Of a stretch of 64,000 bases of DNA, positions 39,526 through 63,938 are shown piece after piece; the first letter of the stretch is position 1, and each line of letters starts with the position of its first letter. This DNA comes from Candidatus Poribacteria bacterium (GTDB lineage: Bacteria; Poribacteria; WGA-4E; PCPOR2b). Where the stretch lies: contig OZ242326.1 of NCBI GenBank assembly GCA_965208325.1, positions 992,001 through 1,056,000 of the forward strand. Direction: 5' to 3'. The position numbers and the translations under genes are program-made. The notes beneath the pieces were generated by a model. The model did no database searches, was not told the DNA's origin, and saw only the letters and a list, made by a program, of their open reading frames with translations.

Positions 39526-40353
39526 ATGAAAAGGCTATTCGGCACACTGTTATCGGTGAGTCTGGTGCTCATTGGGTTGAGTGCATACAGCATCGATCAG
39601 AATAACATCCTCGTCCATTGGTCATTCGACGAACTTGATGGCGAGATATTCAAAGACGAATCGGGCAATGGCCATGATGGAAGACTTGACGGCGACGGCG
39701 CAGTCGTCGAAGGGAGAATTAACAACGCTGTCCATCTGACCGGCGGTTACGTCACTTTGGCTTCGGGTATAGGCAATGTTGTTGAGTCCGTGGGTGCAAC
39801 CGGTGAAATCTCTATGGAGGCGTCGATTTACTTGAGCGCCCATGACGCTTGGGATTCGGTAATTTCAATTGGGGAAGGCGATGAAAATGGTCCGCTAGAG
39901 GGAAACAGAGCAATCATTTTCCGAATGATGGTCTCCCCTGATCTCACGCCATACTGGAACATAGGTTATCGAGCAGACCACAACTTCCCAGATTTCGTGT
40001 TCGACCTGGACACATGGTATCACTACGTCATTACGGGCGATAGCGTAACCAGCAAAATTTACATTAACGGCGAGCTAATCGTTGATGACCCACATGCCAA
40101 CCACAATGTACCGGCGGACTTCGCATTCGCGACGTATACAGATGTGTTCATGTTTGTTGGAGCGGGCGAAGCACCACACGTCTGGAGGTTTGAAGACGCA
40201 ATTGTTGATGAGGTTGCAATCTACAATAAGGTGCTCTCCGAAGGCGAAATCAACGATTTGATGGCGAACGGGATTCCCGGGGTCCTCACCTCAGTTGATG
40301 CACAGGACAAATTAGCCGCACGCTGGGGCGAAATTAAAGCGCAGCACGAATAG
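39526..40353 (+). CDS. secreted LamG-like jellyroll protein with C-terminal WGxIK motif
   Basis: Signal peptide; HWSFDE, DESGNGHDG, WYHY, IYING and VDEVAIYNKVLS motifs. Confidence 0.92.
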   Translation: MKRLFGTLLSVSLVLIGLSAYSIDQNNILVHWSFDELDGEIFKDESGNGHDGRLDGDGAVVEGRINNAVHLTGGYVTLASGIGNVVESVGATGEISMEASIYLSAHDAWDSVISIGEGDENGPLEGNRAIIFRMMVSPDLTPYWNIGYRADHNFPDFVFDLDTWYHYVITGDSVTSKIYINGELIVDDPHANHNVPADFAFATYTDVFMFVGAGEAPHVWRFEDAIVDEVAIYNKVLSEGEINDLMANGIPGVLTSVDAQDKLAARWGEIKAQHE

Positions 40354-40400
40354 AACCTCAGCGATGGATATTTACATTTATAATTACTAGTAACATTTTT

Positions 40401-40433
40401 ATTGTAGGGGCGTAGTCGTTTTGCCCCTACAAT
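40401..40433 (+). terminator. GTAG-REP hairpin, possible terminator after a LamG gene
   Basis: ATTGTAGGGGC...GCCCCTACAAT; paralogue at 42685-42717 has compensatory base changes. Confidence 0.55.
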
Positions 40434-40498
40434 ACCTTTATCATCGGTCATTACCGATGTAAATGCCAAAAATTCCCGCTAATTCGTACGAGAGTGCC

Positions 40499-41296
40499 AT
40501 GAATACATATGACTGCGAACCTACCTTGACCGACACACAGGTACTGGAGTTCTGCAAGCAGGGCTTCTTGATGTTGGAGGGCGTTGTACCCGATGAAATC
40601 AACCGGCAGGCGTTTGAATTCTTGGCGGAGCACACCGAGCACGGATGTTCTGTCGGCAGCATAGACGGGGTTATTGAGAACGTGCTGCTAAACCCGCAAG
40701 CCACAGGCGCGATACGGTCTCTCTTAGGCAAGAACTTCACCTATCCTGCGGACCTGTACGGTCCTGGAAATCAGATAAAGTGTCCAAAGCCGGCAGGGCC
40801 GTGGCACATAGACGGCGGCGCCGTGTTTGGTCCCCATCTGGACTGTCTGCAGGTTTTCTACATCCCGCAGGATACGCCGCTAGAACTGGGACCGACGGAG
40901 GTGTTGCCCGGATCCCATTTCCTCATTGCTGACGGTATTCCTTCCATGGCGCACTACGGCAGTATCCGGGGGGCAGTCCCCACAGCGGGACCGGCAGGCT
41001 CCATTTTTCTCACCGCCTATCCCATTTGGCACCGCCGCGGGGCATCCACGGCAAAGGGCGTCCGCAATTTGCTGAAGTATTCTTATAAACGCACCGTTCC
41101 GCCGGAACGAGACTGGATTCGAGAACCGAACTTCGTGCCCCGGCGCGCCAAAGATGCACCGCCGCGGCAAAAATTTCATCGAGAACACCAACGAGCCATC
41201 TATGATGCTGCCGAGATGTTCTACTGGCTTTGCGGTATGCACAGTGAATATCATACGACCAGCGGAAATAATTTTCCGGTTCACCATTCTAGTTGA
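40499..41296 (+). CDS. PhyH-family dioxygenase (CEPTL subfamily)
   Basis: WHIDG, GPTEVLPGSH and AGSI..WHRR motifs. Confidence 0.88.
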   Translation: MNTYDCEPTLTDTQVLEFCKQGFLMLEGVVPDEINRQAFEFLAEHTEHGCSVGSIDGVIENVLLNPQATGAIRSLLGKNFTYPADLYGPGNQIKCPKPAGPWHIDGGAVFGPHLDCLQVFYIPQDTPLELGPTEVLPGSHFLIADGIPSMAHYGSIRGAVPTAGPAGSIFLTAYPIWHRRGASTAKGVRNLLKYSYKRTVPPERDWIREPNFVPRRAKDAPPRQKFHREHQRAIYDAAEMFYWLCGMHSEYHTTSGNNFPVHHSS

Positions 41297-41363
41297 GTCT
41301 AACTTTTCGTCTGCTAATACGGAGAAGGCTATGCCAAGCGGCCGCCGTTGAGTTCACATTGAT

Positions 41364-41728
41364 ACGTTGCGGCGGCGGCTTGAGCACAACGCTTCCGTAA
41401 AATTCCTTTCCTCTCAATCAAGACGCTGATACTATTTGCAGTGAGTATCAACAATCCTACCAACCGTCGTAAGTTGAACCCAAGGCTTGTAAGGCGACAC
41501 TATTAGCTATCAGGATTATTTCCAAAGAGAAATTCACGCAGGCATTAAGAGATAACTTGTGTGAGACTCATCCAACCAAAACAATCTTGACGATTTTGCA
41601 ATCCATTGAGTCAGCCCTGCAATGGAAGGCATAACGATGTACGCCCAGCGTGCAAGGGTTTACCCCCGCGGGCGTAGTTTTCATGTTCGCGGGAATAATT
41701 CTCGCGGAACAAAGCCGCGCCGAATTAG
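41364..41728 (+). repeat. decayed duplicate of the leader and signal-peptide region of 43036..43821
   Basis: Collinear with 42762-43126; both end in CAAAGCCGCGCCGAATTAG. Confidence 0.8.
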
Positions 41729-41800
41729 TTTTCAGTAATGACTAAAGACGATTCAGGTGCGGCAATTGGTTGTTTAAATAAAAGTAAAGGAGTGCTAACA

Positions 41801-42637
41801 ATGTCTAAGAACATGTTGAAATGGCTGATCGGCGCACTGGTTTCGACGGGCTTGGTATTCGCCGGGCCGAGTGCTCATAGCATCGACGAGAACAACATCC
41901 TTGTTCACTGGTCATTTGACGAACTCGACAATGAGATGTTCAAGGATGAAACGGGCAACGGTTACGATGCAGAACTGGTTGACCCAGGCGAACTTGTCGA
42001 AGGAAAGTTCAACCAAGCTGTCCACCTGCCCGGCGGCTTTGTGAAGCTAGCGCCAAGCGACGTTGTTCAGAGTGTCGGCGATACGGGGGAAATTACCATG
42101 GAGGCGTGGGTATTCTTCAACGAACTCCCGCCGGCACAGTGGGATGGAGTTATCTCGGATAGCACCGCCCAATTTCGGATTATGGTGCAAGCTCCCGACC
42201 ACAACCCGTACTGGAACGTCGGAAATCGCGCAGACAAAAGCGATAAGGCTTTCAAGTTCAAAAAGAACCGGTGGTATCACTATGTCGCGCTAGGAGATAC
42301 CAAAAACAGTAAAGTTTACATTGACGGGGAGCTCGTGGCTGAAGCGGCCCAACCGGCGAACCTTGATAAGAATTTGCCCAAACCGCCGGACGTCGACAAA
42401 CCCTTCCAGATGCCGAAGCTCAAACAGGTGTCAATCTTCGTCGGTGCCGGCGAGGCTGAACATGTTTGGAGGATTGACGACGCAATTATTGATGAAGTCG
42501 CAATCTACAACAAAGCACTCACCGAAGAGGAGATTAACGATTTGACGGAACGAGGGCTTGGCGAAGTTCTCCGCTCGGTCAATCCGCAAGGGAAGTTAGC
42601 CTCCCGCTGGGGAGAAATAAAGATGAAACGCCATTAG
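41801..42637 (+). CDS. secreted LamG-like protein, close paralogue of 39526..40353
   Basis: AAGGAG RBS; signal peptide; NNILVHWSFDELD, VGAGEA.HVWR and DEVAIYNK shared with the paralogue. Confidence 0.92.
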   Translation: MSKNMLKWLIGALVSTGLVFAGPSAHSIDENNILVHWSFDELDNEMFKDETGNGYDAELVDPGELVEGKFNQAVHLPGGFVKLAPSDVVQSVGDTGEITMEAWVFFNELPPAQWDGVISDSTAQFRIMVQAPDHNPYWNVGNRADKSDKAFKFKKNRWYHYVALGDTKNSKVYIDGELVAEAAQPANLDKNLPKPPDVDKPFQMPKLKQVSIFVGAGEAEHVWRIDDAIIDEVAIYNKALTEEEINDLTERGLGEVLRSVNPQGKLASRWGEIKMKRH

Positions 42638-43035
42638 AACCTCAGCAATTGATATTTGCGTTTATGGCGGTTAACCATTCATTGATTGCAGGGGCGAAGA
42701 CGTTTCGCCCCTGCAATGGTTTATCTTTGGTCAATCGGGCGCCAGTTTAGTTTGCATGGAGACGTTGCCGCGCAAGCTTGAGTAGAACGCTTCCGTAAAT
42801 GTCCTTTCCTCTCAATTGTGACACTGAAACTATGCACAGTGAGTATCAACGAACCTACCATTCGCCGTAAGTTTAGCACAAGGCTTTTAAGGGCTTCATG
42901 GTCGACTATTGGGGCCATTCCAGGCAGAAATTCGCACAGGCATGAAGATGGAACTTGTGTGAGATTTATCCAACCAACACATTCTTAACGATTTTATGTC
43001 CCACTGAATCAACCCTACATTGGGAGGCAAAAAAG

Positions 43036-43821
43036 ATGAGAGCCCCAGTCTCAATATTAATCGTAGCGGTAGTTGCTTTCAAATTCTTGGGACTTATTGT
43101 CGCAGGACAAAGCCGCGCCGAATTAGATATCAATTCCGTTAAAGGAGGGTGGCTGCTTGATGAGGGCGCGGGGGAGGAGGCCACGGATGCTTCCCGCCAT
43201 CGGAACGTTGGGTCACTCAAGAACCGTCCGCAATGGGTGGAGGGTAAGTACGGCAAGGCTTTGATGTTTGATGGCGACGGCGCCCATGTTGAAATTCCCC
43301 ATGAGAAGAGTTTGGATGTAAAAGATGAATTTTCAATTGTATTCTGGATGACATCAAATCTAATTCCACCCGGTGGAACGACCAGAGCACTGGTCACTAA
43401 AAATAAATGGGAAGTGGCCATTGACAATGGGACAATACGGTTTTTCCTCAATCCAAAAAATGAGGTTTGTTGTGAAAGACTGTGGGGAATTACGGCGCTA
43501 AATGTAGACACGTGGTATCATGTGGCATGCACTTATAACAATAAACACATGATAATGTATATTGACGGCGTTTTTGACGGTTCTCGTGAAGCATCAGGAG
43601 ACATAAGCAGCACGCAGGACATACATATCGGCCACGACGTTGACCTGCATGGAGCTGGCGGATTTTTCGATGTCATCTTAGATGAAGTAATCCTCTTTGA
43701 TGTTGCGATTACCGAAGATGATGTAAACAGCCTCATGAATGATAGCGCCGCGCTGCTACTCCCAGTTTCGCCCTCCGGCAAACTCGCGACCGCATGGGGA
43801 CGAATAAAGAACCAAGAATAG
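43036..43821 (+). CDS. secreted LamG-like protein
   Basis: GGAGG RBS; signal peptide; WLLDEG, GKYGKALMFDG, WYHVACTY and LDEVILFD motifs. Confidence 0.92.
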   Translation: MRAPVSILIVAVVAFKFLGLIVAGQSRAELDINSVKGGWLLDEGAGEEATDASRHRNVGSLKNRPQWVEGKYGKALMFDGDGAHVEIPHEKSLDVKDEFSIVFWMTSNLIPPGGTTRALVTKNKWEVAIDNGTIRFFLNPKNEVCCERLWGITALNVDTWYHVACTYNNKHMIMYIDGVFDGSREASGDISSTQDIHIGHDVDLHGAGGFFDVILDEVILFDVAITEDDVNSLMNDSAALLLPVSPSGKLATAWGRIKNQE

Positions 43822-43913
43822 TTCCGCCTGCCCGGCGGCTTCGTCAAACTGCCTCCAAGCGACGTGTTATGCTGCGTGCAAAAAGGACAGGTATACATTT
43901 AGGGATACACAGA

Positions 43914-45368
43914 ATGAAGCCCGGCAAACAACAGGTTGAACGGTGGATTTTGAATCGCCGCATGGCTCAAATTGCCCTGCTGACCATCATATTCTTCATT
44001 GAAATCTGCCTTTTGAATGCTCAACAAAACCGCGTCCGCGACTCTTCTCCTCTACTTGTTCATGGCGAAATTGAATCGCAACAATCAACAGCCGCATTGC
44101 AGAAGCACCTCGATGCGGCTAATCTGTATGCGAAACAAAACGATTTCTCAAAAGCCATTGAAAAGCTCCACAAAATGCTGGAGATAGACCCGCAATGCAT
44201 TGAGGCGCACATTCAGCTTGGAATTCTCCACTCCAAAATAGGAAATCTAGACGACGCGCTTCAATCATATACACAGGTGGTGAAACTCAGGCCGGATTCT
44301 TACTCTGCCCACTACAATTTGGGAGTTATTCTCGCACGGAGAGGGTTGTTTGAAAAAGCCGAGACGCAATACCGGCACGCCATACAACTAGACGCAAATC
44401 AGCCCCTGCCGCATTACCAACTCGGTTTTGTGCTTGCCCAACAGGGCAAATATGGGGAAGCGCTTCCTAAATTCAAGAAAGCAGTTGCGCTTGCTCCCAA
44501 TGCAAGCGCCCACTATCAACTCGCCAATACATATTTTCGATTAGGAAACCGCGATGAAGGTGAGCGGCAATTAAAAAAATATAGGGGCATTCAGGCAAAA
44601 CAATATTTCGACAAAGCAGAACAGTCTTTCAAAAGCGGAAATGTGCAGGAAGCCATTAAATCATACCAAAGGGCACTTGACACGGATGTTGAATTTGCCC
44701 CGGCATTTGCGAGACTCGGCGCAATCGCGCTTCAACAGGATGAATTGGAGGACGCGATTCGACATTACCGTGCATACCTAAAGTTAAAACCGGAATCGGT
44801 GCAAGCCCGGCAGACGTTGGCTTCCGCGGCTCTGAAAATAAAGGACTTTGTAACGGCGGCAGAAGAATTTGAACAGGTCATTGCCAGAAATCCTACAGAA
44901 GCTTATCCGTTTTATGGTCTCGGCGCCGCCTATTTGGGAAGTTCTCAATTGGAAAATGCGGAAAAACACTTGCAAAAAGCGCTAGAAATAGAACCGGATT
45001 TTGCAGAGGCTTATTACCAACTCGGCTGGGTGTATCGGGAACGCGGCCAAATCGAAGATGCGATTGAATCCTTTAAGCGTTCAATTGCGAATCGACCGAA
45101 TTTGGCGCCGGCATGCAATACGCTCGCATGGTATTATGTCGAACAAGAGCAGCATTTAGATGATGCTGTGACACTTGCGAAAAGAGCCGTTGAATCTAAT
45201 CCGATTGCGCCTTATTGGGATACACTCGCGCTTGCGCTGTATAAAAATCGAAGATACAAGGAAGCGTCTGAGGCAATTGGCAAAGCGCTCGCGCTGCAAC
45301 CTGCCCATCCGGAATATGCGGCACACCAGAAATTAATTAGGAATGGTATTATCGAGCAGAACAGATGA
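43914..45368 (+). CDS. tetratricopeptide repeat protein (signal/TM N-terminus; start uncertain)
   Basis: Many TPRs (AHYNLG, AYYQLG, A...P). Confidence 0.92.
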   Translation: MKPGKQQVERWILNRRMAQIALLTIIFFIEICLLNAQQNRVRDSSPLLVHGEIESQQSTAALQKHLDAANLYAKQNDFSKAIEKLHKMLEIDPQCIEAHIQLGILHSKIGNLDDALQSYTQVVKLRPDSYSAHYNLGVILARRGLFEKAETQYRHAIQLDANQPLPHYQLGFVLAQQGKYGEALPKFKKAVALAPNASAHYQLANTYFRLGNRDEGERQLKKYRGIQAKQYFDKAEQSFKSGNVQEAIKSYQRALDTDVEFAPAFARLGAIALQQDELEDAIRHYRAYLKLKPESVQARQTLASAALKIKDFVTAAEEFEQVIARNPTEAYPFYGLGAAYLGSSQLENAEKHLQKALEIEPDFAEAYYQLGWVYRERGQIEDAIESFKRSIANRPNLAPACNTLAWYYVEQEQHLDDAVTLAKRAVESNPIAPYWDTLALALYKNRRYKEASEAIGKALALQPAHPEYAAHQKLIRNGIIEQNR

Positions 45369-47385: not shown

Positions 47386-48351
47386 ATGAAATACGATAAA
47401 GAAAAAAGAACATTTGACTGCGAACCGACCTTGACAGACTCACAGGTGCTCGAATTTTGCCGGAACGGATACCTGATTTTGGACGCCGTTGTTCCGGATG
47501 AAGTCAATCAACTCTCCTGTGATTACTTGGATGGGAAACTGCCCGCGAACCCCATCTACATTCCGGAAGGATTGACATTTGAGGACCTAGAGAGTTTCCG
47601 CACAACCGGCGAGCCCTCCGGAATCATGCTTGAAGAATGGTTCATTGAGCACGTCCTCCTCAATCCGCAACTCGCAGGCGCATTGCGCTCGCTGCTTGGA
47701 AAGAATGTCGGTCTGCCGGCGATTATTAGCCACCACCGGGCAGAATGCCCGGCGGGTCCGCAGGGCTGGCATCACGATGCCGATTGCGTCTTTGGGCCCG
47801 AAGTCAACTTTGTCGAGGTTTTCTATTATCCGCAAGATACGCCTCGAGAACTCGGTCCCACCGAAGTTATCCCCGGCTCCCATATCCGCCGTGTCCGGGT
47901 TGAAGCCGGGAAAGAAGAATTACGGGAGGTTCCGCGGACGCCGCCGCACTTTGTCGTTTGGGAACCCACCAAGGTCGTAACCGATGCACCTGCCGGGTCG
48001 ATTATTATCCACCACCAAAGCGTCATGCACCGCAAAGGCCCTTCCACGGTGAAGGGGCTGCGCCGTATGCTTAAACATAACTACTGGCGCACCGTCCCGC
48101 CAGAAAGAGATTGGATTATCGAGCCGGACTTCGACTTTCAAACAGCCGATTATTGGGGACACGGAGTCGCCAAATATATTGCGCACATGTTCTATTGGCT
48201 GTGCGGGAAAGGGGACGATTTCCGCATAATGGGCGGCCAAGCTTGGCCTTGGCACAACCGAAACCAAATCGGTAAATCTTACGGATATGGGTTGACCGAA
48301 GGCTATCGCCCCAACTGGCGAAATAATAACGTTGATGATTACGCAGCTTAA
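47386..48351 (+). CDS. PhyH-family dioxygenase (CEPTL subfamily)
   Basis: AAGGAG RBS; WHHD, GPTEVIPGSH and MHRK motifs. Confidence 0.88.
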   Translation: MKYDKEKRTFDCEPTLTDSQVLEFCRNGYLILDAVVPDEVNQLSCDYLDGKLPANPIYIPEGLTFEDLESFRTTGEPSGIMLEEWFIEHVLLNPQLAGALRSLLGKNVGLPAIISHHRAECPAGPQGWHHDADCVFGPEVNFVEVFYYPQDTPRELGPTEVIPGSHIRRVRVEAGKEELREVPRTPPHFVVWEPTKVVTDAPAGSIIIHHQSVMHRKGPSTVKGLRRMLKHNYWRTVPPERDWIIEPDFDFQTADYWGHGVAKYIAHMFYWLCGKGDDFRIMGGQAWPWHNRNQIGKSYGYGLTEGYRPNWRNNNVDDYAA

Positions 48352-48455: not shown

Positions 48456-49286
48456 ATGTCGAGGGTTTTGTTTTCAATGCTCGTCCTTGTCCTGATGTCG
48501 GGCTGGATATCGGGAATAACACCGGTTTCCCAAGCCAAGGTGATAGGTGCTTGGCTCTTCAATGAAGGGAAAGGCAATGTTGCCAAGGATTCCACCGGTA
48601 ACGGGTTTGACCTGGAGGTCGTCAAAGGGAAGTGGCTTGAAGGTGGAGGTTCATTTGATGGAGCCTTGGGATTTAGTATGGCAACGTATGCTTGGATCGA
48701 GGTCAAAAAGAAAGACGCAGAGTTTAACCTTGATAAAGGAGAATTCACGATTATAACGAGGGGATACCTAACAGGATTGAGCTCGTGTTGTGCAGGGATT
48801 CCCCGTTGGGAGGCACTCAGCGGAGACTTTGACCGTGCAGGCTGGCTCATACATCCGGATACAGGAGCACCCGACTATGTGTTTAGTTGGTGGTATAATG
48901 ATGGAGGCTGGACCAAAGCTGGAAGTTCAGGTGCACTAAGGTTTAAAGCGGAGTGGCATCAGTTTGCCGTGACTTTTGATACAAAGAGGATACTGATGTA
49001 TCTTGACGGCGAAGAGATAGCTGACTTCCCAGCGAACCGTGGACCAACCCCCTTTGAAGACGGTGGAACACTCACTTTCTCCCGCGACCGCTGTTGTGTC
49101 CCGCCCCGGATGTTCACCGGCGCCATCGATGAAAGCCTTATAGCGGATGAAGCCTTCTCAGCAGCCGTAATTGCAGAATCAGCGAAGAAAGGACTTCAAA
49201 ATACAGCCGCGTTCAGACAGGTGTTCACCGTCGATGAGCGCGGTAAGTTAGCCACGACCTGGAGCCGATTGAAAACCCTATACTAA
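48456..49286 (+). CDS. secreted LamG-like protein
   Basis: Signal peptide; WLFNEGKG, DSTGNG, WHQFAVTFD, MYLDG and GAIDE motifs. Confidence 0.9.
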   Translation: MSRVLFSMLVLVLMSGWISGITPVSQAKVIGAWLFNEGKGNVAKDSTGNGFDLEVVKGKWLEGGGSFDGALGFSMATYAWIEVKKKDAEFNLDKGEFTIITRGYLTGLSSCCAGIPRWEALSGDFDRAGWLIHPDTGAPDYVFSWWYNDGGWTKAGSSGALRFKAEWHQFAVTFDTKRILMYLDGEEIADFPANRGPTPFEDGGTLTFSRDRCCVPPRMFTGAIDESLIADEAFSAAVIAESAKKGLQNTAAFRQVFTVDERGKLATTWSRLKTLY

Positions 49287-49432: not shown

Positions 49433-50293
49433 ATGACAGCTATGAAAACAGCCAATTGTGAACCCACGTTAAATGACCACGATGTCTGGGCATTTTGCAA
49501 AAAGGGGTACCATGTGTTAGAGGGTGTTGTCAGCGACGAGATAAACACGAAAGTGCTTGAATTCCTTGACGCCCACGAGGGGTTGGGCGGGCAGCTGATC
49601 AATGAGGAGTGGTTTGTTGAAAACGTCTTTCTCAATCCTCAAGCCGCGGGCGCAGTGCGTTCATTGCTCGGCAAGGACTTCGGTCTGCCAATCGGAATGG
49701 GCAATCATCGAGTCGTTTGCCCCAATCGAAGTCAGGGATGGCATCACGACGGAGCGGCGTTGGTGGGTCCAGAGTTGAATCACCTGCAGGTGTTTTACTA
49801 TCCGCAAGACTGCCCGGAGGAAATGGGACCGACCGGATTGGTGCCCGGCTCGCACTTTCTGCGCGCCCTTCAAAGCTGGATGAGCCACTACGGCGCCATT
49901 AGTAAAGAGGTCAAGACATCAGCCCCGGCCGGTTCGATTTTCATAACCGCCTATCCGATATGGCATCGCCGCTCTAAATCGACCGCGACTGGGATTCGCA
50001 ATATGCTGAAATACTGCTATTGGCGAAGTACGCCCCCACGGCACGATTGGATAGCCGAACCGAATTTCAACCCAATGACAGCAGACTTCCCCGACGCGAC
50101 CGACTCACCTCGCCAACAGTGCCAGTCTTGGTATGAAGTCGGCGAGATGTATTACTGGCTGCGCGGAGAACTGGACACGTTTTATGGAATCATGGGCGGC
50201 GAAGGCTGGCCGCACGGCTATCCCGTAGGGTGGAAACCTGAAGGGTTCCGCCGTTTTACAAAAGAGGCTGCAAACGCGCCCGCGCCACGGTGA
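49433..50293 (+). CDS. PhyH-family dioxygenase (CEPTL subfamily)
   Basis: WHHDG, GPTGLVPGSH and WHRR motifs. Confidence 0.88.
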   Translation: MTAMKTANCEPTLNDHDVWAFCKKGYHVLEGVVSDEINTKVLEFLDAHEGLGGQLINEEWFVENVFLNPQAAGAVRSLLGKDFGLPIGMGNHRVVCPNRSQGWHHDGAALVGPELNHLQVFYYPQDCPEEMGPTGLVPGSHFLRALQSWMSHYGAISKEVKTSAPAGSIFITAYPIWHRRSKSTATGIRNMLKYCYWRSTPPRHDWIAEPNFNPMTADFPDATDSPRQQCQSWYEVGEMYYWLRGELDTFYGIMGGEGWPHGYPVGWKPEGFRRFTKEAANAPAPR

Positions 50294-52134: not shown

Positions 52135-52926
52135 TTAAGCCAACGCCCTGAGGCAATCGTCGTTTAGCGGACTCAACGGCGTAAAGTCGCGGTTGTTGTG
52201 ATGCCAAGCGCGTTCGGTGCCGGTGCACGCGTTGCTGACGGCGTTGTAGTTCAGGTACATGATCGCCCGCCGCCACGGCGAGACATTGTTCGCCGAGCCG
52301 TGCAGCAGGTTGCAGTGGACGAATGCCACAGATCCTGCGGATCCTACCAGTGCGTCAATACCGTTTTCGTCAGCGTATTGTTTCATTGTGTCTTGATCGA
52401 TGTGGTACAGGGAATAGCCGCTCCCCTTTGCGTCCACGTGCAGGCTTGAGTCCAGCGTACCGAGGCGGTGCGTACCCGGCACAACGAGGAGAGGCGACTT
52501 GGCAGCCGTGCAATCGTCGATAAACACCGATGCCATGATGCAGCGCGGTTCTTGCATGCCGTCGATGACTTTCCACGGCGGGTAATCCTGATGCCAGTCC
52601 CAGGAAGATCCCTTGCCGAGTCCGTACTTCGGGTTGATACGGCTCTGATGAAGATACACGTCATCTTTAAGTATTTGGCGCACCGGGTTCAGTATGCGCG
52701 GCAGCAGCGAAAGGCGCCGGAATGGTTCCGAATACACGTGCGCCCCAAAGACTAGCTTCGCTGCGTCCGAATCATCATTCTCACGCACCACCTCCGGTCC
52801 TCGCCGATTAAGAATCTCCGGCATGGCTTCCTGAAGAGTCTTCACCTCGTTCTCGCCCAGCAATCCCGGAAAGAACAGGTAACCCTGCTCCTCAAACTCC
52901 GCAATCTGCGCATCGCTAAGTTGCAT
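52135..52926 (-). CDS. PhyH-family dioxygenase related to ectoine/proline hydroxylases
   Basis: VYLHQSRINPK, WDWHQD and LHGSANNVSPW motifs; lacks the strict EctD signature. Confidence 0.88.
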   Translation of the reverse strand: MQLSDAQIAEFEEQGYLFFPGLLGENEVKTLQEAMPEILNRRGPEVVRENDDSDAAKLVFGAHVYSEPFRRLSLLPRILNPVRQILKDDVYLHQSRINPKYGLGKGSSWDWHQDYPPWKVIDGMQEPRCIMASVFIDDCTAAKSPLLVVPGTHRLGTLDSSLHVDAKGSGYSLYHIDQDTMKQYADENGIDALVGSAGSVAFVHCNLLHGSANNVSPWRRAIMYLNYNAVSNACTGTERAWHHNNRDFTPLSPLNDDCLRALA

Positions 52927-54199: not shown

Positions 54200-54769
54200 T
54201 TATAACCTACCCAGCAGCTCCTGTTTCTTGGATTCAAACTCGCCTTCGGTGAGGATGCCTTCGCCTTTCAATGCGGCGAGTTGCCGAATTTGCTCGAGAA
54301 CATCAACGTCGTCATCGGCGCCGGTAATTGCCGGCGGCGTCTCCTCATCCGGTTTCGTGCCAAACACCCCGGCTCGTGAAAGCGCCCATACACACCCGAC
54401 CAACAACCCCACCAGCAATACCTTCATGTGCAAAGCGTGCACGGGGGGCCACGAAGACGAGGAGTATGTAACTTGTAACGGGAGTGAATCTTGAATTACG
54501 AATTCAGGTCCGCTTCCATAAACCAAAACGAGGCAAACCAAAAGCCCCGCCAAGGTCGGCACGACAAAAGCAATGCGTACCTCCCTGCGTTCGATTGCCC
54601 AGCAAACCCCAACACACAGACCAAACAGCACCCCGCCCCAAAGCCAAACATCATTCGACTCGGGATTGTAGCTGCCGTTTATCGATAAAAACAATGACAC
54701 GCCTATCGCAAACCCAACGCAGCATACAAGTACCTTCAGGACTGCTACTGCCAGCTTTCCAAATTCCAT
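54200..54769 (-). CDS. 4-TM membrane protein with C-terminal SHOCT domain
   Basis: LEQIRQLAALKGEGILTEGEFESKKQELL; AGGAGG RBS. Confidence 0.88.
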   Translation of the reverse strand: MEFGKLAVAVLKVLVCCVGFAIGVSLFLSINGSYNPESNDVWLWGGVLFGLCVGVCWAIERREVRIAFVVPTLAGLLVCLVLVYGSGPEFVIQDSLPLQVTYSSSSWPPVHALHMKVLLVGLLVGCVWALSRAGVFGTKPDEETPPAITGADDDVDVLEQIRQLAALKGEGILTEGEFESKKQELLGRL

Positions 54770-54898: not shown

Positions 54899-55417
54899 CT
54901 AAAGTCTACCCAACAACTCGTGTTTCTTAGATTCAAACTCTTCGTCGGATAGAATGCCATCGTTTTTCAACTCCCCGAGTTCCCGTATCTGTTCGATGAC
55001 ATCGACTCCGGAGACTCCGGATGCTTCATGCGGGGCAGCCTCATCCTGTTTCGGCGCGAATGCCCCGAATCGTGAGAGCGCCCATACGCCCGCAATCGCC
55101 AACGCCAGAATTAATAACAGCGGTATGTCCGCAGGGCTCCAGCGGGGCGGACTATCTTCGTAGCTTGACAAAACCACCCAAAAGGCTAACAATCCCACTA
55201 GCAGCGGCATAATGAACGCAATCCGCATTTCTACGCGTCCGCTTGCCCAACATATCCCAACACACAGTCCAATCAATACGCCTCCCAAACCCCATAATAA
55301 ATACAACTCATGATCGGGATACGAACTTAACGACCAAATCAGCATTCCAGCAAACCCGAATCCAACAATACACGTGATTACCTTCGTGATGCCTAATGCA
55401 ACTCGACCAGTACTCAT
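54899..55417 (-). CDS. 4-TM membrane protein with SHOCT domain (tandem paralogue)
   Basis: IEQIRELGELKNDGILSDEEFESKKHELL; AGGAGG RBS. Confidence 0.88.
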   Translation of the reverse strand: MSTGRVALGITKVITCIVGFGFAGMLIWSLSSYPDHELYLLWGLGGVLIGLCVGICWASGRVEMRIAFIMPLLVGLLAFWVVLSSYEDSPPRWSPADIPLLLILALAIAGVWALSRFGAFAPKQDEAAPHEASGVSGVDVIEQIRELGELKNDGILSDEEFESKKHELLGRL

Positions 55418-55574: not shown

Positions 55575-56387
55575 TCAGTAGTCGACAACGCTGCAAAATT
55601 GAAAAAGCTCACGTGCGCGCTCCGATAGCCCGTCGTATGTCTCCGGCGGCACCTTTATCGGGCCGCCGATACTCATCCACCACAACGTATAGCAGACCAC
55701 AATTTCGGGACGCGGCGAATCGGAAGTGTTTGGGGTTCCTCGATGCAATATGCGGGGATCTTGTATCCACATCGTACCTTTTTTCACATTCAGCCGCTGC
55801 GCGGACGGAAAATTCCCTTGCGTCAACACCTCATCGTACCGCCCTTCTAGGTCGGGATTCGCGAGATACTGCGATGAAGGCAGCACCTCAATACTGCCGT
55901 TCTCCTCGGAAGTGTCCACGAGCGGGAACTTAACGCCTATTGACGGACACGTGTCAAGCCCGACATGCGGGATTTCTTTTGCAAGTTCGACGTCTCTATG
56001 CCAAGGCTGAAACTCGCTGCCCGGATACGGGTTGTTGGAGTGAAAACACTTGATGTAAAAATCGTCTCTGTCCCAATAACGCCGGAGGAATTCCAGTATA
56101 ACCGGGTTCTCGTACACCTCCGGGTCCGCGAACGGCGGCACCCACGGGATGGTTAGTGTGTAACGGTTGACCATCTGTTGGCGCCCATACCCGGTACGCA
56201 GCTCGCCCCACTCTTTGGGCGCGATACCGTCTTCCCGCGTTCTGACGTGTTCAAGCATCGGCAGAAACGCTTCTCGGACGCGGTCTACCGTCGCGGCGGA
56301 CAATACATCCTCAATCACCGCGAAGCCGTTTATCCTGAACTCGGATACTTTAAGATCTAAATCTACGTCTTCACATCTTACAGTCAT
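55575..56387 (-). CDS. PhyH-family dioxygenase
   Basis: GGAGG RBS; QPWHRD, ENGSIEVLP and LHRGTPN..PRP motifs. Confidence 0.88.
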   Translation of the reverse strand: MTVRCEDVDLDLKVSEFRINGFAVIEDVLSAATVDRVREAFLPMLEHVRTREDGIAPKEWGELRTGYGRQQMVNRYTLTIPWVPPFADPEVYENPVILEFLRRYWDRDDFYIKCFHSNNPYPGSEFQPWHRDVELAKEIPHVGLDTCPSIGVKFPLVDTSEENGSIEVLPSSQYLANPDLEGRYDEVLTQGNFPSAQRLNVKKGTMWIQDPRILHRGTPNTSDSPRPEIVVCYTLWWMSIGGPIKVPPETYDGLSERARELFQFCSVVDY

Positions 56388-56722
56388 GAATCCTCCGCCG
56401 GTCAACGGAAAAACTGTTTTGAAACCGAGTTTTTTCCCCAAAACTCGGTTTCTCAAAACTTACAAAAAGCCGTCAATCGCATTGTGACCCTGGCTTTAGA
56501 AACCAAGTAGGTTTTCAAAACGCGGTTGCTCCGCCATGCGATGCAGGTATAGGCAAAGATTAAAGCATAACACGTGCAAACTTGATTTTATCATAGCACA
56601 TTTCCACCCGTCCAGAAAAACAGGAAATCGATTCCGCATTTCTATGTGCCGATCGAGCGGTTTGTGCTATCATACCGGTTGTGCTAAATTCAGAATTCAA
56701 CCTGAGAAAAGGAGAATTAGAT

Positions 56723-57397: not shown

Positions 57398-58300
57398 TTG
57401 AACGACAATTTACAAGACTACCGAGACTATCTGTACGATTTAGACAAGTCCGAGAAGACAATTCAAGCCTACATGACGGATTTGCGTTCATTTTCGCACT
57501 GGTTCGAGACAGAGACGGGAGAATCGATTGACCCGGAGAACATCACACCGCTAGATGTAATCGACTACCGCAAAGATATGCTCGATCAGGGCAGAAAACC
57601 GTCAACCATTAACCGCCGCTTAATCAGCATCTCCAGCTTCTGCCAGTGGGCGCGCGAAAACGACCTGATACCCAATAACCCGGTTGAAGGTGTTCGACCC
57701 GTGGCTGAGGAGCCGCTTGGCCCCGCCGCGCTAGAACGTAAGCAACAACTCGCGTTGATCAGGACGGTTCGGAGATCAGGAAATATTCGGGATCTGGCGA
57801 TTATCACGACCTTGTTACACACCGGTATACGCGTAAACGAACTCTGTAACCTTCACGTTTCTGATATTATTATATCTGAGAATAGCAATATGATTACAGT
57901 CCGCCAAGGCAAAGGTACGAAGCGGCGGACAATCCCGTTAAACCCAACTGTTGTCCGCATTTTAAAGGACTATTTGGAGTCACAAAACGGCAAGGGTACT
58001 CGGACCACTGCGACACAGCTCGAGGCGTCTGAGTTCCTGTTTTACGGACAGAAACGAACGCCGCTGACCGACCGCGGCGTACGTTATATTATCAAAAAAT
58101 ATGCGTATATTGCAAAAATAGAGCATGTATCACCGCATTCGCTTAGACATACCTGTGCTAAGAACCTTATTGATGCTGGACAGCCTATCGATAGAGTCGC
58201 AACAATTCTCGGACATTCAAGTGTTAACACAACCAAAATTTATACAATGCCTACAGAACGAGATTTACAAAAGACTATGGACAGCATTGCGTGGGAGTAA
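57398..58300 (+). CDS. tyrosine recombinase (XerC/TnpI-like) with N-terminal SAM-like domain
   Basis: Intact catalytic set: TGIRVNE, GKG.KRR, HSLRH, LGHSS, TTKIY; AAGGAG RBS before a TTG start. Confidence 0.95.
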   Translation: MNDNLQDYRDYLYDLDKSEKTIQAYMTDLRSFSHWFETETGESIDPENITPLDVIDYRKDMLDQGRKPSTINRRLISISSFCQWARENDLIPNNPVEGVRPVAEEPLGPAALERKQQLALIRTVRRSGNIRDLAIITTLLHTGIRVNELCNLHVSDIIISENSNMITVRQGKGTKRRTIPLNPTVVRILKDYLESQNGKGTRTTATQLEASEFLFYGQKRTPLTDRGVRYIIKKYAYIAKIEHVSPHSLRHTCAKNLIDAGQPIDRVATILGHSSVNTTKIYTMPTERDLQKTMDSIAWE

Positions 58301-58385
58301 TATTCCAAATTATAGTACGTTCCTATTATTTGGAATTACAAATTCTTTAACTGTAAATGTTTATTATATTCCTTTCGAATTATTA

Positions 58386-59363: not shown

Positions 59364-61310
59364 ATGAGCGTTCGCCCCATTTCTCGACCGAAGGTTGTTT
59401 ACATCCGTTTCGTTACCAGGATCGCTACGGCGGTGCTGCTATTCATCCCGTGTTCGGTACAAGCGATTAATTTCGCCGACAAAATCGTGTATGTTTCCGA
59501 CCTCGGCGTAACACCCGATATGTTTCTAGTTGAAGGATTGGACGGCAATCCGACTCAACTCACGCGCAATATGTTCGTAAGTTCGCCCACAATTTCACCT
59601 GACGGTGCTGAGGTCGCCTTTGTGTCCAGTCCACCGGGAGGACAATCGGATATTTTCAAATTGCACATCGCAGCCGATCGAGTTGAAAAACTGACGGGCA
59701 ATGCCGAATGGGATGCCAGATTCACCGATCTCGATTGGTCGCCCGATGGACAACAAATCCTCTTTATCACGTCAATAGGTGCACAAGGCGGCGATCAAAC
59801 ATACCTTAGCGTAGTGAATATGAACACTCACGACATACGGCATATTCTTCAACCGGACCTACCGACTCGTATTTCGAATCCCAGTTGGTCGCCCGATGGC
59901 CGGCGCATTATATTTAGCCAAGAAGATGAGGGGCGTCTTCACGACAGGCTATTTATTACTGACGACAAGGGGAACAACGTCATCGAGGTAAGGCAAAGAG
60001 AACTCGAATTCTTGACCGATGCGTCGTCTGTTCACGTCAATACAATCCCTGCATGGTCGCCGAGTCAGCGCGAAATTGCCTACGTCACGTTAATTGAAAT
60101 CAACCGCACTGCGCCCAATCCGATTCAAATTTATTCGATGAACCTGGCTGATGGCAGCGCTGCGGCGTTAACATCTGAAAAAACGATGCACAGTATACCG
60201 CTGGCTTGGAGTCCGGATGGGTTGAAATTTCTGTTCGCCGCTTTACCATTCGATCAAGAAGCTGAATCGAATGACATCTATGTCATGGACGCCAATGGAA
60301 AAAATATGACAAATTTGACGCAGTCGCCGGAACATGAAGGAACTGCACACTGGTCGCCTGACGGAAGCGAGATTGTCTACGCGAGATTAACCGAAGAGCG
60401 TAATAGCACAATCTTCGTGATGAATGAGACCGGTAAAAATCCACAGCAATTGACGTTTGAACTCGGATTAAATGCAGCTCCATTCTGGTCTCCGGATGGG
60501 GAAAAAATCGTCTTCCTATCAGATCGTGACGGCGCGAGGCAAATCTATACGATGGACCGCGACGGCGAAAACGTCCAACAAATCACGGAAATCCAACGCG
60601 AATTCGTCGGGGCGCCGGCTTGGTCGCCGGATGGCAAATGGATAGCATTCGCGTCTGGCGATAAAGACAGTTGGGGGCTTTATCGCATCGACCCACAAGG
60701 CCTCAAGGAAACGCCCATTTTACGTTCGAAAGTGAATCAACTTGATGGTCGGGCTATGTTCCGCCCTGCGTGGTCGCCCGATAGTCAGAACCTCATTTAT
60801 GTCGACCCTGAAGCAAACGATAATGTCGGTCTAATGCGAATTCAAACTGAAGGAGGCTTGCCAACCCAGTTAAACACTGACGGAATAGAATTCTGGTGGA
60901 GCCCTGTTTGGTCGCCGGACGGAAACAGCCTCCTCTTCAGTGCGCAAAGGAATGAAGACGGCCCTTTCTTTGCCGATCAAATGCTTGCGCTATACTTGAC
61001 CAACCCCAATACTTCGGTACAAAGGGAGATTTTTCTTAGGGGCATTGACCACTTAGATTTTAAATCAGAATGGAATTTTCGCCGGTTAGTGTGGGCGCCA
61101 GACCGCTCACATCTCTTGTTGTCAATCGAGCGGAAACGGGTAGGCACTCAACAGGAAAATAGGCTATATCTGATTGATACCATGAATGAAAACGCCAGCT
61201 TATGGATGAAAGACGCGGGCGATGCGGATTGGGTCAAGCCGGGCTATGTGTATGCCGTGAACCCCAGCGGAAAACGGATTTCAACATGGGCTGAACTGAA
61301 AAAACGCTAG
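59364..61310 (+). CDS. exported TolB-like PD40-repeat beta-propeller protein
   Basis: GGAGGT RBS; signal peptide; repeated WSPDG. Confidence 0.92.
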   Translation: MSVRPISRPKVVYIRFVTRIATAVLLFIPCSVQAINFADKIVYVSDLGVTPDMFLVEGLDGNPTQLTRNMFVSSPTISPDGAEVAFVSSPPGGQSDIFKLHIAADRVEKLTGNAEWDARFTDLDWSPDGQQILFITSIGAQGGDQTYLSVVNMNTHDIRHILQPDLPTRISNPSWSPDGRRIIFSQEDEGRLHDRLFITDDKGNNVIEVRQRELEFLTDASSVHVNTIPAWSPSQREIAYVTLIEINRTAPNPIQIYSMNLADGSAAALTSEKTMHSIPLAWSPDGLKFLFAALPFDQEAESNDIYVMDANGKNMTNLTQSPEHEGTAHWSPDGSEIVYARLTEERNSTIFVMNETGKNPQQLTFELGLNAAPFWSPDGEKIVFLSDRDGARQIYTMDRDGENVQQITEIQREFVGAPAWSPDGKWIAFASGDKDSWGLYRIDPQGLKETPILRSKVNQLDGRAMFRPAWSPDSQNLIYVDPEANDNVGLMRIQTEGGLPTQLNTDGIEFWWSPVWSPDGNSLLFSAQRNEDGPFFADQMLALYLTNPNTSVQREIFLRGIDHLDFKSEWNFRRLVWAPDRSHLLLSIERKRVGTQQENRLYLIDTMNENASLWMKDAGDADWVKPGYVYAVNPSGKRISTWAELKKR

Positions 61311-61384
61311 CGCCTTGATGATTCATGCAATCAGACTCCACTAAGGAGAACAGAGTTCCCAATCAAATCCCAGGAGGACGACAA

Positions 61385-62167
61385 ATGAGATTGAATCTGT
61401 TTTGCATCGTATCGCTCTGTCTTATGAGTTTGATACTGAGTTGCGGCGATGACGAAGACGAACCGTCAATAGACGTTGTTATGTCGCCGACTGAGAGTCT
61501 TAAAGTTGAGGCAGGCGTTCCGGACGAGGACAACATTGCGGTACCTGATCCTGTGGAGGAACATGTCCAAAATCCAGATTTAGTCGAGGAAATTGTGCCC
61601 CCAGAGGCAGAGGTGCTGGAACCCGATGTAGAACCAATCCAGGATGCAATCGATGGCGTATTGGAACGCTTGCGGGAGGGTTACGAAAAGGAAGATATTG
61701 ACCTGTATCTGAGTGCGTTCTGGATTGATGGATTCCGATACACCTCCGATATGGCAACCCCCCACGATCGATTCGACGATGTAATCTTTGATGAACTCAA
61801 GACCGAAGGCGAATCTGCGGGTAGGGTGTTTGCACGTTTCCAGGATATTAGATTGCATATATTCTCTCCTGCTCAGATCGTTAGGGCGGCCCCCGCACGA
61901 ATCGAAGCCGTGACGCATTATCGTGTCCAAGCGTTTGCGAATGATGGCCACGCTTTAGAAGGCGGATTTCTGGCATGGTATGCCGAAGGAGATGCGCGTT
62001 TTACCTTTGAATTCCGTGAGGAGGAGTGGCGGATTACCAATTGGCTAGATGACGCATTTGACGTGCAAGAGATGCTTGTATTCAACGAAGGCATCAAGCT
62101 TGAAGTTGCAGTCAATCCCATTGATAAGTTGGCGTCAACGTGGGGACGCATCAAGACAGCGTTTTAA
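61385..62167 (+). CDS. lipoprotein with acidic linker and NTF2/SnoaL-like domain
   Basis: AGGAGG RBS; lipobox LILS-C; GYEKEDIDLY..F...WRITNW. Confidence 0.8.
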   Translation: MRLNLFCIVSLCLMSLILSCGDDEDEPSIDVVMSPTESLKVEAGVPDEDNIAVPDPVEEHVQNPDLVEEIVPPEAEVLEPDVEPIQDAIDGVLERLREGYEKEDIDLYLSAFWIDGFRYTSDMATPHDRFDDVIFDELKTEGESAGRVFARFQDIRLHIFSPAQIVRAAPARIEAVTHYRVQAFANDGHALEGGFLAWYAEGDARFTFEFREEEWRITNWLDDAFDVQEMLVFNEGIKLEVAVNPIDKLASTWGRIKTAF

Positions 62168-62180
62168 GGGGTATACGGTT

Positions 62181-63938
62181 ATGAGACATTGCCTTGTGAT
62201 TGCGATAGGTATTGCGTTCGCGGCATGGGTCGCTAGTGCGGAAGAGCAGATTTTGTTTGAATCGAACAGACATGGCAACGATGAGATTTACAGGCATTTT
62301 CCCGGCGTCAGGACTCAGAGACTTACATTCGATGAGGGCGGTGATTATTATCCGGCGTTGTCGCCCGATGGGAAAAAGATGGCGTATGTCCCGAGAATCG
62401 GGGGGATTCTCGAAATCGCCGTCCTTGACTTCAGGTCTGGCAAACGCCAGCAATTAACTTTTTCACCCTTGCACAAGAGCAATCTCCACCCAACCTGGTC
62501 GCCGGACGGAAGTCGAATCGCTTACGCTTCAGATGCAGATGGCGATTTCGATATTTATTTCATGGATGAAAACGGACAAAACGCGACAAATTTGACCGAC
62601 GATTCGCCTCTGCACGAAAACTCACCCCATTGGTCACCGGTGAGCGAGAAAATTGTATTTGTCTCTTATCCAGATGGATGGGTCGCGGAAGATGTCAATC
62701 TACTTGATGTGCGGACCGGCGATCGGCGAAGACTCACGTCTTCGATCAACCCAGTAGCTTATCCACGTTGGTCGCCGAACGGTTCTCAGATTGCCTATTT
62801 TTCGACGAAGCCGTTTGAACCCCCGCTGTCGACTTCAGAGATTTGGCGCGCAAAGGCGGATGGTACGGATGCGGAGCCGTTAGTGACTGACGGCGGCGGC
62901 AATAGGAGTCCCAGATACTCTCCAGACGGAAAGTGGATTGCATTTGAATCTTATCGGGACTTTAACACCGACATTTACGCATTGAATCTAGAATCACGGG
63001 AGGTTATCCGTTTAACGACCCACCTCGGGGACGACTCATACCCCAGTTGGTCTCCCGACGGAGAACGGTTCGCCTTCGTTTCCAGCCGAGACGGCAACCC
63101 GGACATCTTCACCATGACCGTCAATGGACAGCAGATAACCAATCTGACAAAAAACGGCCTGTCTGAATACCACCCCACCTGGTCCCCTGACGGAGAAAAA
63201 ATCGCGTTCACGCGGTGGATGGGGGACGACAGCTCCAGGATTTACATTATAGATAGCAATGGCGAGAATGAAGTCGAGTTAGCCGCTTTGCCCGCCAACA
63301 ACGATTTTCCCGCGTGGTCCCCGCTAGGTAACAAAATCGCCTTTGTGAATCGTCCGGAACGAGGAGAGCGAAAGTCTCTGGTTTATATAGTTGACCCAAA
63401 CGGGAAAAACCTACAAGCGATTCACAAAAACCAGGACAAACGGATTAGGCAGATGGCGTGGTCCGGTGATGGGACTCAGATTATTTTCAGTCCTATCCGC
63501 AGTCCAATCACCGCTGTCAACACGGTGACCCTTGAAGTTCACACCGTTGATATACCGGTGCACTCGCCAAATTCTCCCGATTGGTCACCTGACGGTCAAG
63601 ACATTACTTTTACGGCGTTTCCTCCGCCAATTGTAAGCTTTGACGCGGGCCACGGCGTCTTCATCATCGATCAGGACGGGAACGCCGTTCGAACTATTAT
63701 TGTGGACACACATCCATTAGACGCCGAAGGACTTGCTTGGTCGCCCGACGGGAAGGAGATGCTCTTGGGTCAGCATGGAGGGTTATACACACTGGACTTG
63801 GTTAGCGAAACCGTTTCGTTGTTCCTCGAATTCGCTAGCAACCCCAATTGGCAGAATCCGACTCAACCTCGGTCAGTGTCTCCTCGAAATAAACTGAATA
63901 CGACATGGGGCGATATGAAAACGGGCGCAGGACGTTGA
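62181..63938 (+). CDS. exported TolB-like PD40-repeat beta-propeller protein
   Basis: Signal peptide ending ASA; repeated PxWSPDG and F.S.RDGN.DI. Confidence 0.92.
   Translation: MRHCLVIAIGIAFAAWVASAEEQILFESNRHGNDEIYRHFPGVRTQRLTFDEGGDYYPALSPDGKKMAYVPRIGGILEIAVLDFRSGKRQQLTFSPLHKSNLHPTWSPDGSRIAYASDADGDFDIYFMDENGQNATNLTDDSPLHENSPHWSPVSEKIVFVSYPDGWVAEDVNLLDVRTGDRRRLTSSINPVAYPRWSPNGSQIAYFSTKPFEPPLSTSEIWRAKADGTDAEPLVTDGGGNRSPRYSPDGKWIAFESYRDFNTDIYALNLESREVIRLTTHLGDDSYPSWSPDGERFAFVSSRDGNPDIFTMTVNGQQITNLTKNGLSEYHPTWSPDGEKIAFTRWMGDDSSRIYIIDSNGENEVELAALPANNDFPAWSPLGNKIAFVNRPERGERKSLVYIVDPNGKNLQAIHKNQDKRIRQMAWSGDGTQIIFSPIRSPITAVNTVTLEVHTVDIPVHSPNSPDWSPDGQDITFTAFPPPIVSFDAGHGVFIIDQDGNAVRTIIVDTHPLDAEGLAWSPDGKEMLLGQHGGLYTLDLVSETVSLFLEFASNPNWQNPTQPRSVSPRNKLNTTWGDMKTGAGR

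Follow-up and report, generated by a model that had tools for sequence, protein, structure and literature searches.

The DNA analysed here, referred to as the window, is a stretch of 64,000 nucleotides from a Candidatus Poribacteria bacterium (positions 992,001 to 1,056,000 of contig OZ242326.1, assembly GCA_965208325.1), and the contig from which it comes is a single sequence of 4,707,648 bp (4.71 Mb). Poribacteria are dominant, uncultured symbionts of sponges. Between positions 39,526 and 63,938 of the window, seven genes code for proteins of the exported type that end in the same short peptide, which we will call the tag (Table 1). An initial annotation of this DNA had described the tail on seven exported proteins of three folds and proposed that it was a lineage-specific sorting or anchoring signal. 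When the sequence was rechecked, the seven open reading frames (ORFs) and their C-terminal sequences were as described, and the starts given in Table 1 are the in-frame ATGs of the listed ORFs. The assignment of four carriers to Laminin_G_3 and of two to PD40 was reproduced with Pfam; in NCBIfam the TolB models stayed under their cut-offs for protein 5. The ORF of protein 6 (61325-62167) gave no family in Pfam and none in NCBIfam, its NTF2-like character is a weak lead only (ESM Atlas clusters, scores 0.78-0.83), and the carriers fall not into three folds but into at least ten unrelated groups, as described below. None of the seven proteins matched an NCBIfam sorting-signal model at E values up to 0.1. 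The tag of protein 7 scored 41.4 bits, among the best values in the search of the phylum, and two further tagged paralogues of this protein are found just past the window, ending at genome positions 1057830 and 1059973.

Table 1. Coordinates of the tagged genes, of their tags and of the other features mentioned in the text (W, numbering of the window; G, numbering of the genome).
Feature	Numbering	Coordinates	Strand	Length	Remarks
LamG-type exported protein 1, tagged	W	39526..40353	+	275 aa	Laminin_G_3 E 1.4e-13
Tag of protein 1, V to stop codon	W	40294..40353	+	19 aa	
LamG-type exported protein 2, tagged	W	41801..42637	+		Laminin_G_3 E 7.3e-17
Tag of protein 2, V to stop codon	W	42578..42637	+	19 aa	
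LamG-type exported protein 3, tagged	W	43036..43821	+	261 aa	Laminin_G_3 E 4.4e-20; structure predicted
Tag of protein 3, V to stop codon	W	43765..43821	+	18 aa	
LamG-type exported protein 4, tagged	W	48456..49286	+		Laminin_G_3 E 6e-13
Tag of protein 4, V to stop codon	W	49230..49286	+	18 aa	S instead of the usual G/A after W
PD40/TolB-like propeller protein 5, tagged	W	59364..61310	+		PD40 E 1.2e-46
Tag of protein 5, V to stop codon	W	61257..61310	+	17 aa	
Probable lipoprotein 6, tagged	W	61385..62167	+		No Pfam/NCBIfam family; I-L-S-C lipobox-like site
Tag of protein 6, V to stop codon	W	62111..62167	+	18 aa	
PD40/TolB-like propeller protein 7, tagged	W	62181..63938	+		PD40 E 2.6e-62
Tag of protein 7, V to stop codon	W	63876..63938	+	20 aa	
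PhyH-like dioxygenase gene	W	40463-41296			Cytoplasmic; alternates with tagged LamG genes
PhyH-like dioxygenase gene	W	47386-48351			Same
PhyH-like dioxygenase gene	W	49433-50293			Same
PhyH-like dioxygenase gene	W	52135-52926	-		Same
PhyH-like dioxygenase gene	W	55575-56456	-		Same
PorU-like giant 1	G	about 4021620-4027898		2092 aa	Propeptide_C25 + Peptidase_C25, about 900 residues without known family, CTD
PorU-like giant 2	G	about 3715227-3721577		2116 aa	Propeptide_C25 + Peptidase_C25, about 900 residues without known family, CTD
SprA-like frame	G	about 3089390-3095956		2196 aa	Under cut-off
Scaffoldin-like giant 1	G	2316461-2325643		3060 aa	9 Cohesin modules alternating with Big_1, terminal CTD
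Scaffoldin-like giant 2	G	2326201-2333448		2415 aa	5 Cohesin modules alternating with Big_1, terminal CTD
Dockerin of the dockerin/cohesin-tag gene pair	G	3482907-3483047			
Cohesin of the same pair	G	3483919-3484266			
Paralogue of the 349-aa cohesin-tag protein	G	1623007-1624056			

We built a profile of the tag from 109 seed tails and ran it unfiltered on the 28,642 stop-to-stop frames of at least 60 aa of the genome (3.53 million residues). It gave 145 matches, 127 of them at 10 bits or more, and exactly seven of these 127 are located in the window. The motif thus exceeds by a wide margin what chance would give. All 127 end at 15 residues or less from the stop codon, and no internal match reached 10 bits in any of the frames, the best one having 8.0 bits, so that the C-terminal position first noticed in seven proteins is strict over the whole genome. 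The set includes one false positive (a Na:Ala symporter) and three short fragments of 64-105 residues, and three more LamG paralogues have weaker tails without the first lysine. Only the profile separates signal from noise, since the loose pattern K-x(4,5)-W-x(3)-K is unspecific (132 terminal versus 144 internal chance matches).

The consensus, about 20 residues long, reads [A/S]-V-x-P-x-x-K-[L]-x-T-T-W-[G/A]-x-[L/I/V/M]-K, and after it comes an overhang of 1-14 polar, often basic residues. The tryptophan is present in all 127 tails, and taking it as position 0, the upstream residues are A/S at -11, V at -10 (122 tails), P at -8 (101), K at -5 (111), L at -4 (72) and T at -2 and -1 (66 and 69). 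Downstream, position +1 is G in 84 tails and A in 35, +3 is L, I, V or M in 123, and +4 is K in 124 and R in the other 3. The overhang has typically three residues (48 of 127) and Arg is its commonest residue (85 of 558). Its longest hydrophobic run is of 4 residues, in agreement with the earlier remark that there is no transmembrane helix after the motif, and an aromatic last residue (F, Y or W) is seen in only 12 of the 127. In orthologues that are 74-95% identical the core of the tag is kept and the overhang varies, and the tails of LamG and PD40 proteins have flavours specific to each family.

The carriers are very diverse. After removing the last 28 residues, single linkage of BLAST matches divided the 127 proteins into 15 unlinked groups, namely 74 LamG proteins, 35 PD40 propellers, one group of four, two pairs and ten singletons, and the independence of the tag from the fold that carries it is thus borne out on a larger scale than in the window. 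Pfam applied to 19 representatives added 3keto-disac_hyd (DUF1080), Cohesin, DUF3108-like and Temptin_C to the list, and several representatives had no family. In a crude call of 3,698 genes we found 124 tag genes, that is about 3% of the total. LamG is the largest paralogue family of this genome, with 78 members of which 72 are tagged, and the propellers are the second largest (73 members, 35 tagged). None of the LamG family members has the C-terminal domain (CTD) of the type IX secretion system (T9SS). Tagged proteins are small, with a median of 276 aa versus a median frame of 827 aa for the carriers of CTDs, and 84 of the 124 called tag genes are immediately beside another one. Signal-peptide-like N-termini are clearly enriched among them, as had been claimed for the seven proteins of the window: by a crude hydrophobicity test 120 of the 124 tag genes have one versus 1542 of 3574 other genes, and 98 of 124 versus 975 of 3574 when only the first start codon is considered.

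Every synonymous codon is in use at the conserved residues of the tag, and the stop codons of the tag genes are used as in the rest of the genome. This indicates that what is conserved is the peptide and not a copied piece of DNA. From the K at -5 to the end, the net charge is on average +2.7, and at least +2 in 83% of the tails. Read as a helix, the tail has a hydrophobic moment of 0.28 (the median of the proteome is 0.30) and a mean hydrophobicity of 0.01, both being scale-based values. The tag is therefore basic and not amphipathic, and we rejected an amphipathic-helix anchor, including the in-plane type of PBP5/6, MinD and FtsA, because the moment does not rise above the background of the proteome.

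Protein 3 (43036-43818) was modelled with AlphaFold2 from an alignment of 53 rows, mainly 40 of the 74 LamG paralogues of its own genome, because a word-indexed search with the whole LamG protein gave 9 relatives. The mean pLDDT was 85.6. The LamG fold ends at residue 221 and is followed by a helix (227-241), and the tag appears beyond them as a loop (242-249) and a helix (250-259) with pLDDT of 56-60. We also predicted the last 150 residues of a WD40 protein in which a version of the tag precedes a CTD (see below). Here the CTD had pLDDT above 90 and the element was a coil, with residues 45-65 below 50. In these models, of one LamG carrier and one CTD-linked version, the tag is predicted to be neither an integral strand nor packed on the CTD, and on these single predictions we ruled out an integral element of the carrier fold, LamG strand included. 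Complex prediction for a PD40 carrier with a LamG carrier (tail to tail, tail to propeller and tail to LamG) gave a score of 0.00; being without controls, it speaks neither for nor against binding.

The tag is found throughout the phylum. The profile gave matches in all the 81 Poribacteria genomes sampled, that belong to 17 of 17 genera and 8 families, with about 100 tags or more in most of them (the scoring had a ceiling of 104) and 18 in the lowest. To look outside the phylum we used a 45-base degenerate DNA pattern of the tag, without stop information, over one genome per species of 185,579 species. At least 141 stretches were found. Among the 80 matches listed, 73 were in records of Candidatus or uncultured Poribacteria and 7 in four metagenome-assembled genomes (MAGs) named only as 'uncultured bacterium', which have 74-150 tags each; no other named taxon is among these 80. 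In the 141 cases a stop codon appears 1-12 codons downstream, most often after 3 (72 of 141), again with the motif at the C-terminus. A library of 1.84 billion representative proteins gave 541 matches to the profile at E values up to 0.001, and in 141 of the best 150 the core was at 15 residues or less from the end; in five it was at 16-36 residues and in four the match affected only a part that is not the tail. A word-indexed protein search with the tail profile, too insensitive for counts, gave 34 matches, of which the two named at NCBI were both Candidatus Poribacteria. As far as seen, the tag is restricted to one lineage, which is what the initial annotation had supposed.

Nor did any curated family match it. 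When 25 tails were scanned alone at E values up to 10, there was no Pfam or NCBIfam model in common. In the PDB the sole recurring match was weak (3.5-4.6 bits per repeat) and corresponded to the designed 'Bagel' propellers and their parent cell-surface protein (8prj, 8prs, 8pra). Only the initial half of the tag (A-V-x-P-x-G-K-L) is covered, which pairs with the repeated motif of the propeller blades, and the alignment stops before the W. This match is no evidence of homology, and hints at a strand-turn-strand or beta-hairpin shape rather than the low-confidence helix of AlphaFold. The tryptophan-docking repeat of PQQ propellers has 11 residues per blade (A-x-D/N-x-x-T-G-K/E-x-x-W), and the tag differs from this consensus in the spacing from K to W, apart from the weak blade alignment ending before the W. 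A full-text search of the literature on Poribacteria, in which subscription journals and supplements were outside the scope, did not retrieve any description of the tag. The tag family is thus real, large and phylum-wide, and is in neither the curated libraries nor the literature searched.

We have compared the tag with the C-terminal signals that are already known. With the type A CTD of the T9SS (TIGR04183/PF18962, the substrate of PorU-PorV-SprA in Bacteroidota) it shares being a fold-independent C-terminal element of Sec-exported proteins, and the genome does have CTDs and PorU-, PorV- and SprA-like genes, with the element abutting some of the CTDs. However, the tag has about 20 residues and no match to these models, versus 70-100 residues of beta-sandwich in the CTD, and its 127 carriers have no CTD. 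No CTD family (TIGR04183/PF18962/PF13860) was found on the seven proteins of the window, on the 19 representatives or on the 25 tails alone, and the true CTDs of this genome score 19-38 bits. The tripartite sorting signals (LPXTG/sortase, PEP-CTERM/exosortase and GlyGly-CTERM/rhombosortase) are similar in being short C-terminal motifs of many unrelated exported proteins, lineage-restricted and with dozens to hundreds of copies per genome. Unlike them, the tag is not followed by a transmembrane helix; there was no match to an NCBIfam sorting domain, and no enzyme family of this kind was enriched beside the tag genes, no search having been aimed at exosortase or sortase genes. Dockerins and cohesins of the cellulosome type are also a case of many proteins plugging one small C-terminal module into a shared scaffold. 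Dockerin_1 is a duplicated calcium-binding segment of about 60-70 residues, and the tag has no match to it (PF00404) and a quarter of its length. In pre-D1/CtpA and PBP3/Prc a C-terminal extension is removed by a peptidase, and in the Braun lipoprotein the C-terminal Lys is linked to peptidoglycan. These resemble the tag in the conserved site followed by a short variable extension, or in the conserved lysine near the end, but they are single substrates whereas the tag is present on more than 100 proteins, and its lysine is not terminal. The beta-signal of outer-membrane proteins, in which a terminal aromatic residue closes a beta-barrel, was ruled out by the 12 of 127 aromatic ends and by the carriers being soluble LamG and propeller folds. 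In all, wherever a known C-terminal signal could be tested, the tag was without the features that define it.

A relationship with the T9SS did appear just upstream of some CTDs. The genome has 56 matches to TIGR04183, of which 51 are over the cut-off. In 16 of these proteins (14 with WD40 repeats and 2 other carriers), the sequence V-x-P-x(4)-[I/L/V]-T-T-[L/F]-G-x-I-K immediately precedes the CTD. Its residues keep the spacing of the tag: V at 0, P at 2, T at 8 and 9, L or F replacing W at 10, G at 11, I at 13 and K at 14. The element ends 3 residues before the CTD and, in the 11 copies matched by the strict expression, is 96 residues before the stop; the tag profile gives these CTD-linked copies only 7.2-7.5 bits. 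The remaining 40 of the 56 matches do not have the element. In 40 of the 81 genomes and 7 of the 17 genera the L/F form occurs with a CTD beginning after three more residues, and the reversed control pattern had 0 matches. The full form with W, three residues and CTD was found once each in 5 of the 81 genomes, the two most distant families included, on a WD40 protein, on one that is subtilisin-like by eye and on others. The three-residue spacer before the CTD is the modal overhang of the free tails. An element with identical spacing directly before T9SS CTDs, at the distance that free tails most often keep from their end, was not part of the original description and is new.

In known T9SS systems the CTDs are removed by PorU. 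The element is tolerated internally only where the part downstream is the domain that is cut off in known T9SS, which fits a function at the mature C-terminus, and it is there that the tag seems to work. Two giant PorU-like proteins are coded in the genome (Table 1), and C25 peptidases of 1,700-2,250 aa are present in all the 81 Poribacteria genomes. The PorV-like matches were 10, all of them under the cut-off, as was the SprA-like frame, and there are two secretins. GldM gave no match in this genome, the same search having found none in any control genome either, and nothing suggestive was seen in the flanks of the PorU-like and SprA-like genes. There is prior evidence of CTDs in the group, as WD40 proteins with the TIGR04183 domain were reported in Poribacteria, where structural Por genes are described as not found (Kamke et al., 2014; PMC3909097).

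The same genome seems to code for a cohesin-dockerin assembly whose parts would leave the cell by a type-IX-like route. Two scaffoldin-like giants end in CTDs, and 11 Dockerin_1 matches are found on 10 proteins, all ten with CTD and none tagged. We found no paper on such an assembly in Poribacteria in the full-text search. Two proteins of 349 aa combine a signal peptide with a single cohesin and the tag, and the gene of one of them follows directly a dockerin-plus-CTD gene (605-aa frame) in the region 3482419-3485766 of the genome. This protein has the appearance of a small anchoring scaffoldin encoded next to its cargo. By analogy, the arrangement suggests that the tag may be the anchoring end of the cohesin proteins, the evidence being circumstantial. 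Cohesin as the receptor of the tag was a candidate that we dropped before testing, as there are ten ordinary dockerin partners and two cohesin proteins carry the tag themselves.

We examined the genes located within two positions of the tag genes, judging enrichment by 500 circular shifts. Two families of PhyH-like dioxygenases stood out, with 14 of 31 members near a tag gene in the first (1.95 expected) and 9 of 29 in the second (1.89 expected), and for either family at most one of the 500 shifts reached the observed value. Enrichment was weaker for several catabolic families, those found being PhyH-like, TIM-barrel, SDR, PQQ and SUMF1-like. TPR proteins were considered as possible receptors: a heterogeneous TPR family of 37 members (by single linkage), which includes the TPR gene of the window, appeared near tag genes 8 times, with 2.4 expected (p about 0.01). 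At this distance there is no conspicuous family of proteases, transpeptidases or channels. The pattern suggests that tagged LamG genes and PhyH genes form recurring catabolic units, and in the window both kinds of gene alternate (Table 1).

The explanation that we prefer, giving it a probability of about one half, is that the tag is a docking or anchoring recognition peptide, exposed at the mature C-terminus and read by a single shared partner in the envelope. It would be an autonomous module of about 20 residues on Sec-exported proteins that are small and mostly non-catalytic binding proteins. The flexible, positively charged peptide with its invariant tryptophan would be bound by one envelope partner common to the Poribacteria, and this binding would keep more than 100 different proteins, lectin-like or propellers, together at one site. 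This site would most likely be on the outside of the cell, since T9SS cargo with the same element would expose its tag once the CTD is removed. A specific reader is more likely than lipid because the hydrophobic moment is at the median of the proteome while the net charge is +2.7. The targeting, processing or docking role inferred by the initial annotation would here take the form of docking. Several observations weigh against this picture. No partner was found, only the cytoplasmic PhyH-like dioxygenases and other catabolic families being enriched within two genes of the tag genes. The crude test for signal peptides is also passed by 27-43% of the other genes, a high background. The CTD-linked copies do not have the W or the K at -5, and the element could be relaxed, and so non-functional, when it is not terminal; moreover, the 16 copies are one closely related cassette with a common CTD subtype, motif and CTD being conserved at 80-99% and the WD40 part much less, and not independent cases. 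Tail-only proteins have no known signal to cross the outer membrane and may stay in the periplasm, the location at the surface resting on the analogy with the CTD-linked proteins and on the two secretins. Finally, the view of the tag outside the phylum comes from the at least 141 matches among 185,579 species genomes.

Some of the same data can be read in other ways. The main rival to our reading starts from the 1-14 unconserved residues behind the conserved motif, an arrangement typical of a leaving group. The tag might then be a sortase-type signal: a C25 peptidase of the PorU-like kind would cleave on the C-terminal side of the invariant Lys at +4, release the overhang or the CTD, and perhaps attach the new C-terminus to a glycolipid of the cell surface, a reaction known from PorU of Porphyromonas. 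The presence of the motif three residues before CTDs, that PorU cuts in known T9SS, agrees with this, as do the two C25 giants with CTD, the C25 peptidases of all 81 genomes and the Lys specificity of some C25 enzymes (the gingipain Kgp). We consider it unlikely, given that 40 of the 56 CTD matches are without the motif, which is then not needed for CTD removal, and that PorU-type enzymes act at the cell surface, to which tail-only proteins have no known route. The co-occurrence does not discriminate either, because C25 and T9SS parts are common in other phyla and the tag is seen only here. The positive charge, with Arg as the commonest residue of the overhang, together with an invariant W, a residue that favours membrane interfaces, would also suit direct binding of Lys/Arg and Trp to an anionic polymer or membrane of the envelope (LPS core, peptidoglycan or phospholipid head groups) with no protein receptor, and L or F does replace W where a CTD, possibly a covalent anchor, comes next. 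A hydrophobic moment at background and a mean hydrophobicity of about 0 do not favour such binding, and generic charge explains neither why V, P, T-T and G/A hardly vary and keep their spacing nor why the position has to be at the very C-terminus; we regard it as quite improbable. As for the tag being a functionless scar or structural cap, either the leftover linker of lost CTDs or the last element of each fold, the free tail does end where a CTD would start, with the same spacing of three residues, and the family-specific flavours of the LamG and PD40 tails are consistent with inheritance by gene duplication. Against it stand the conservation of the peptide with free synonymous variation in 8 families and more than 10 unrelated carriers, the prediction of the tag outside the fold and the ordinary usage of stop codons, and we give this possibility hardly any weight.

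Some other features of the window deserve mention. RNA-library contigs 95-99% alike, from three sponge metatranscriptome runs of one study, span positions 39436-40385, i.e. LamG gene 1, which is no proof of transcription. The tag core of protein 1 differs from these relatives at 3 bases, 2 of them synonymous and 1 at a variable position. Divergent from LamG gene 1 (39526-40353, plus strand) there is a GH32-like gene (37216-38844, minus strand). At the start of its long ORF, over the first 30 residues compared, the sequence closely resembles the signal peptide of this LamG protein, which may reflect a duplication of the 5' end or an ORF drawn too long. Two membrane proteins, paralogues encoded in tandem (54200-54769 and 54899-55417, both on the minus strand; 189 and 172 aa), have in common a conserved, acidic peptide at the C-terminus with identical ending, SHOCT-like by eye. 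Between the LamG/PhyH block and the propeller block, a 300-aa ORF (57398-58300, plus strand) is tyrosine recombinase-like by eye.

Whatever reads the tag would be central to the building of the envelope of these symbionts and to their contact with the host. The tag may represent a new class of address on bacterial proteins, one with neither a membrane helix nor a folded domain, and the link with the junction of the T9SS domain provides a concrete place to seek the machinery. For metagenomes, it would be a simple sequence handle to predict a large 'tagged exoproteome', and display or pull-down experiments might make use of it as a short peptide that can be moved between proteins. More speculatively, and we would hold this scenario to be doubtful as a whole, a peptide of 15 residues tied evolutionarily to T9SS-domain junctions would be the address for a phylum-specific receptor or a Lys-directed C25 'sortase', so that more than 100 lectin-like and propeller modules would coat the cell surface as a 'lectinosome' beside a T9SS-exported cohesin-dockerin scaffold, probably capturing glycans of the sponge matrix or interacting with the host.

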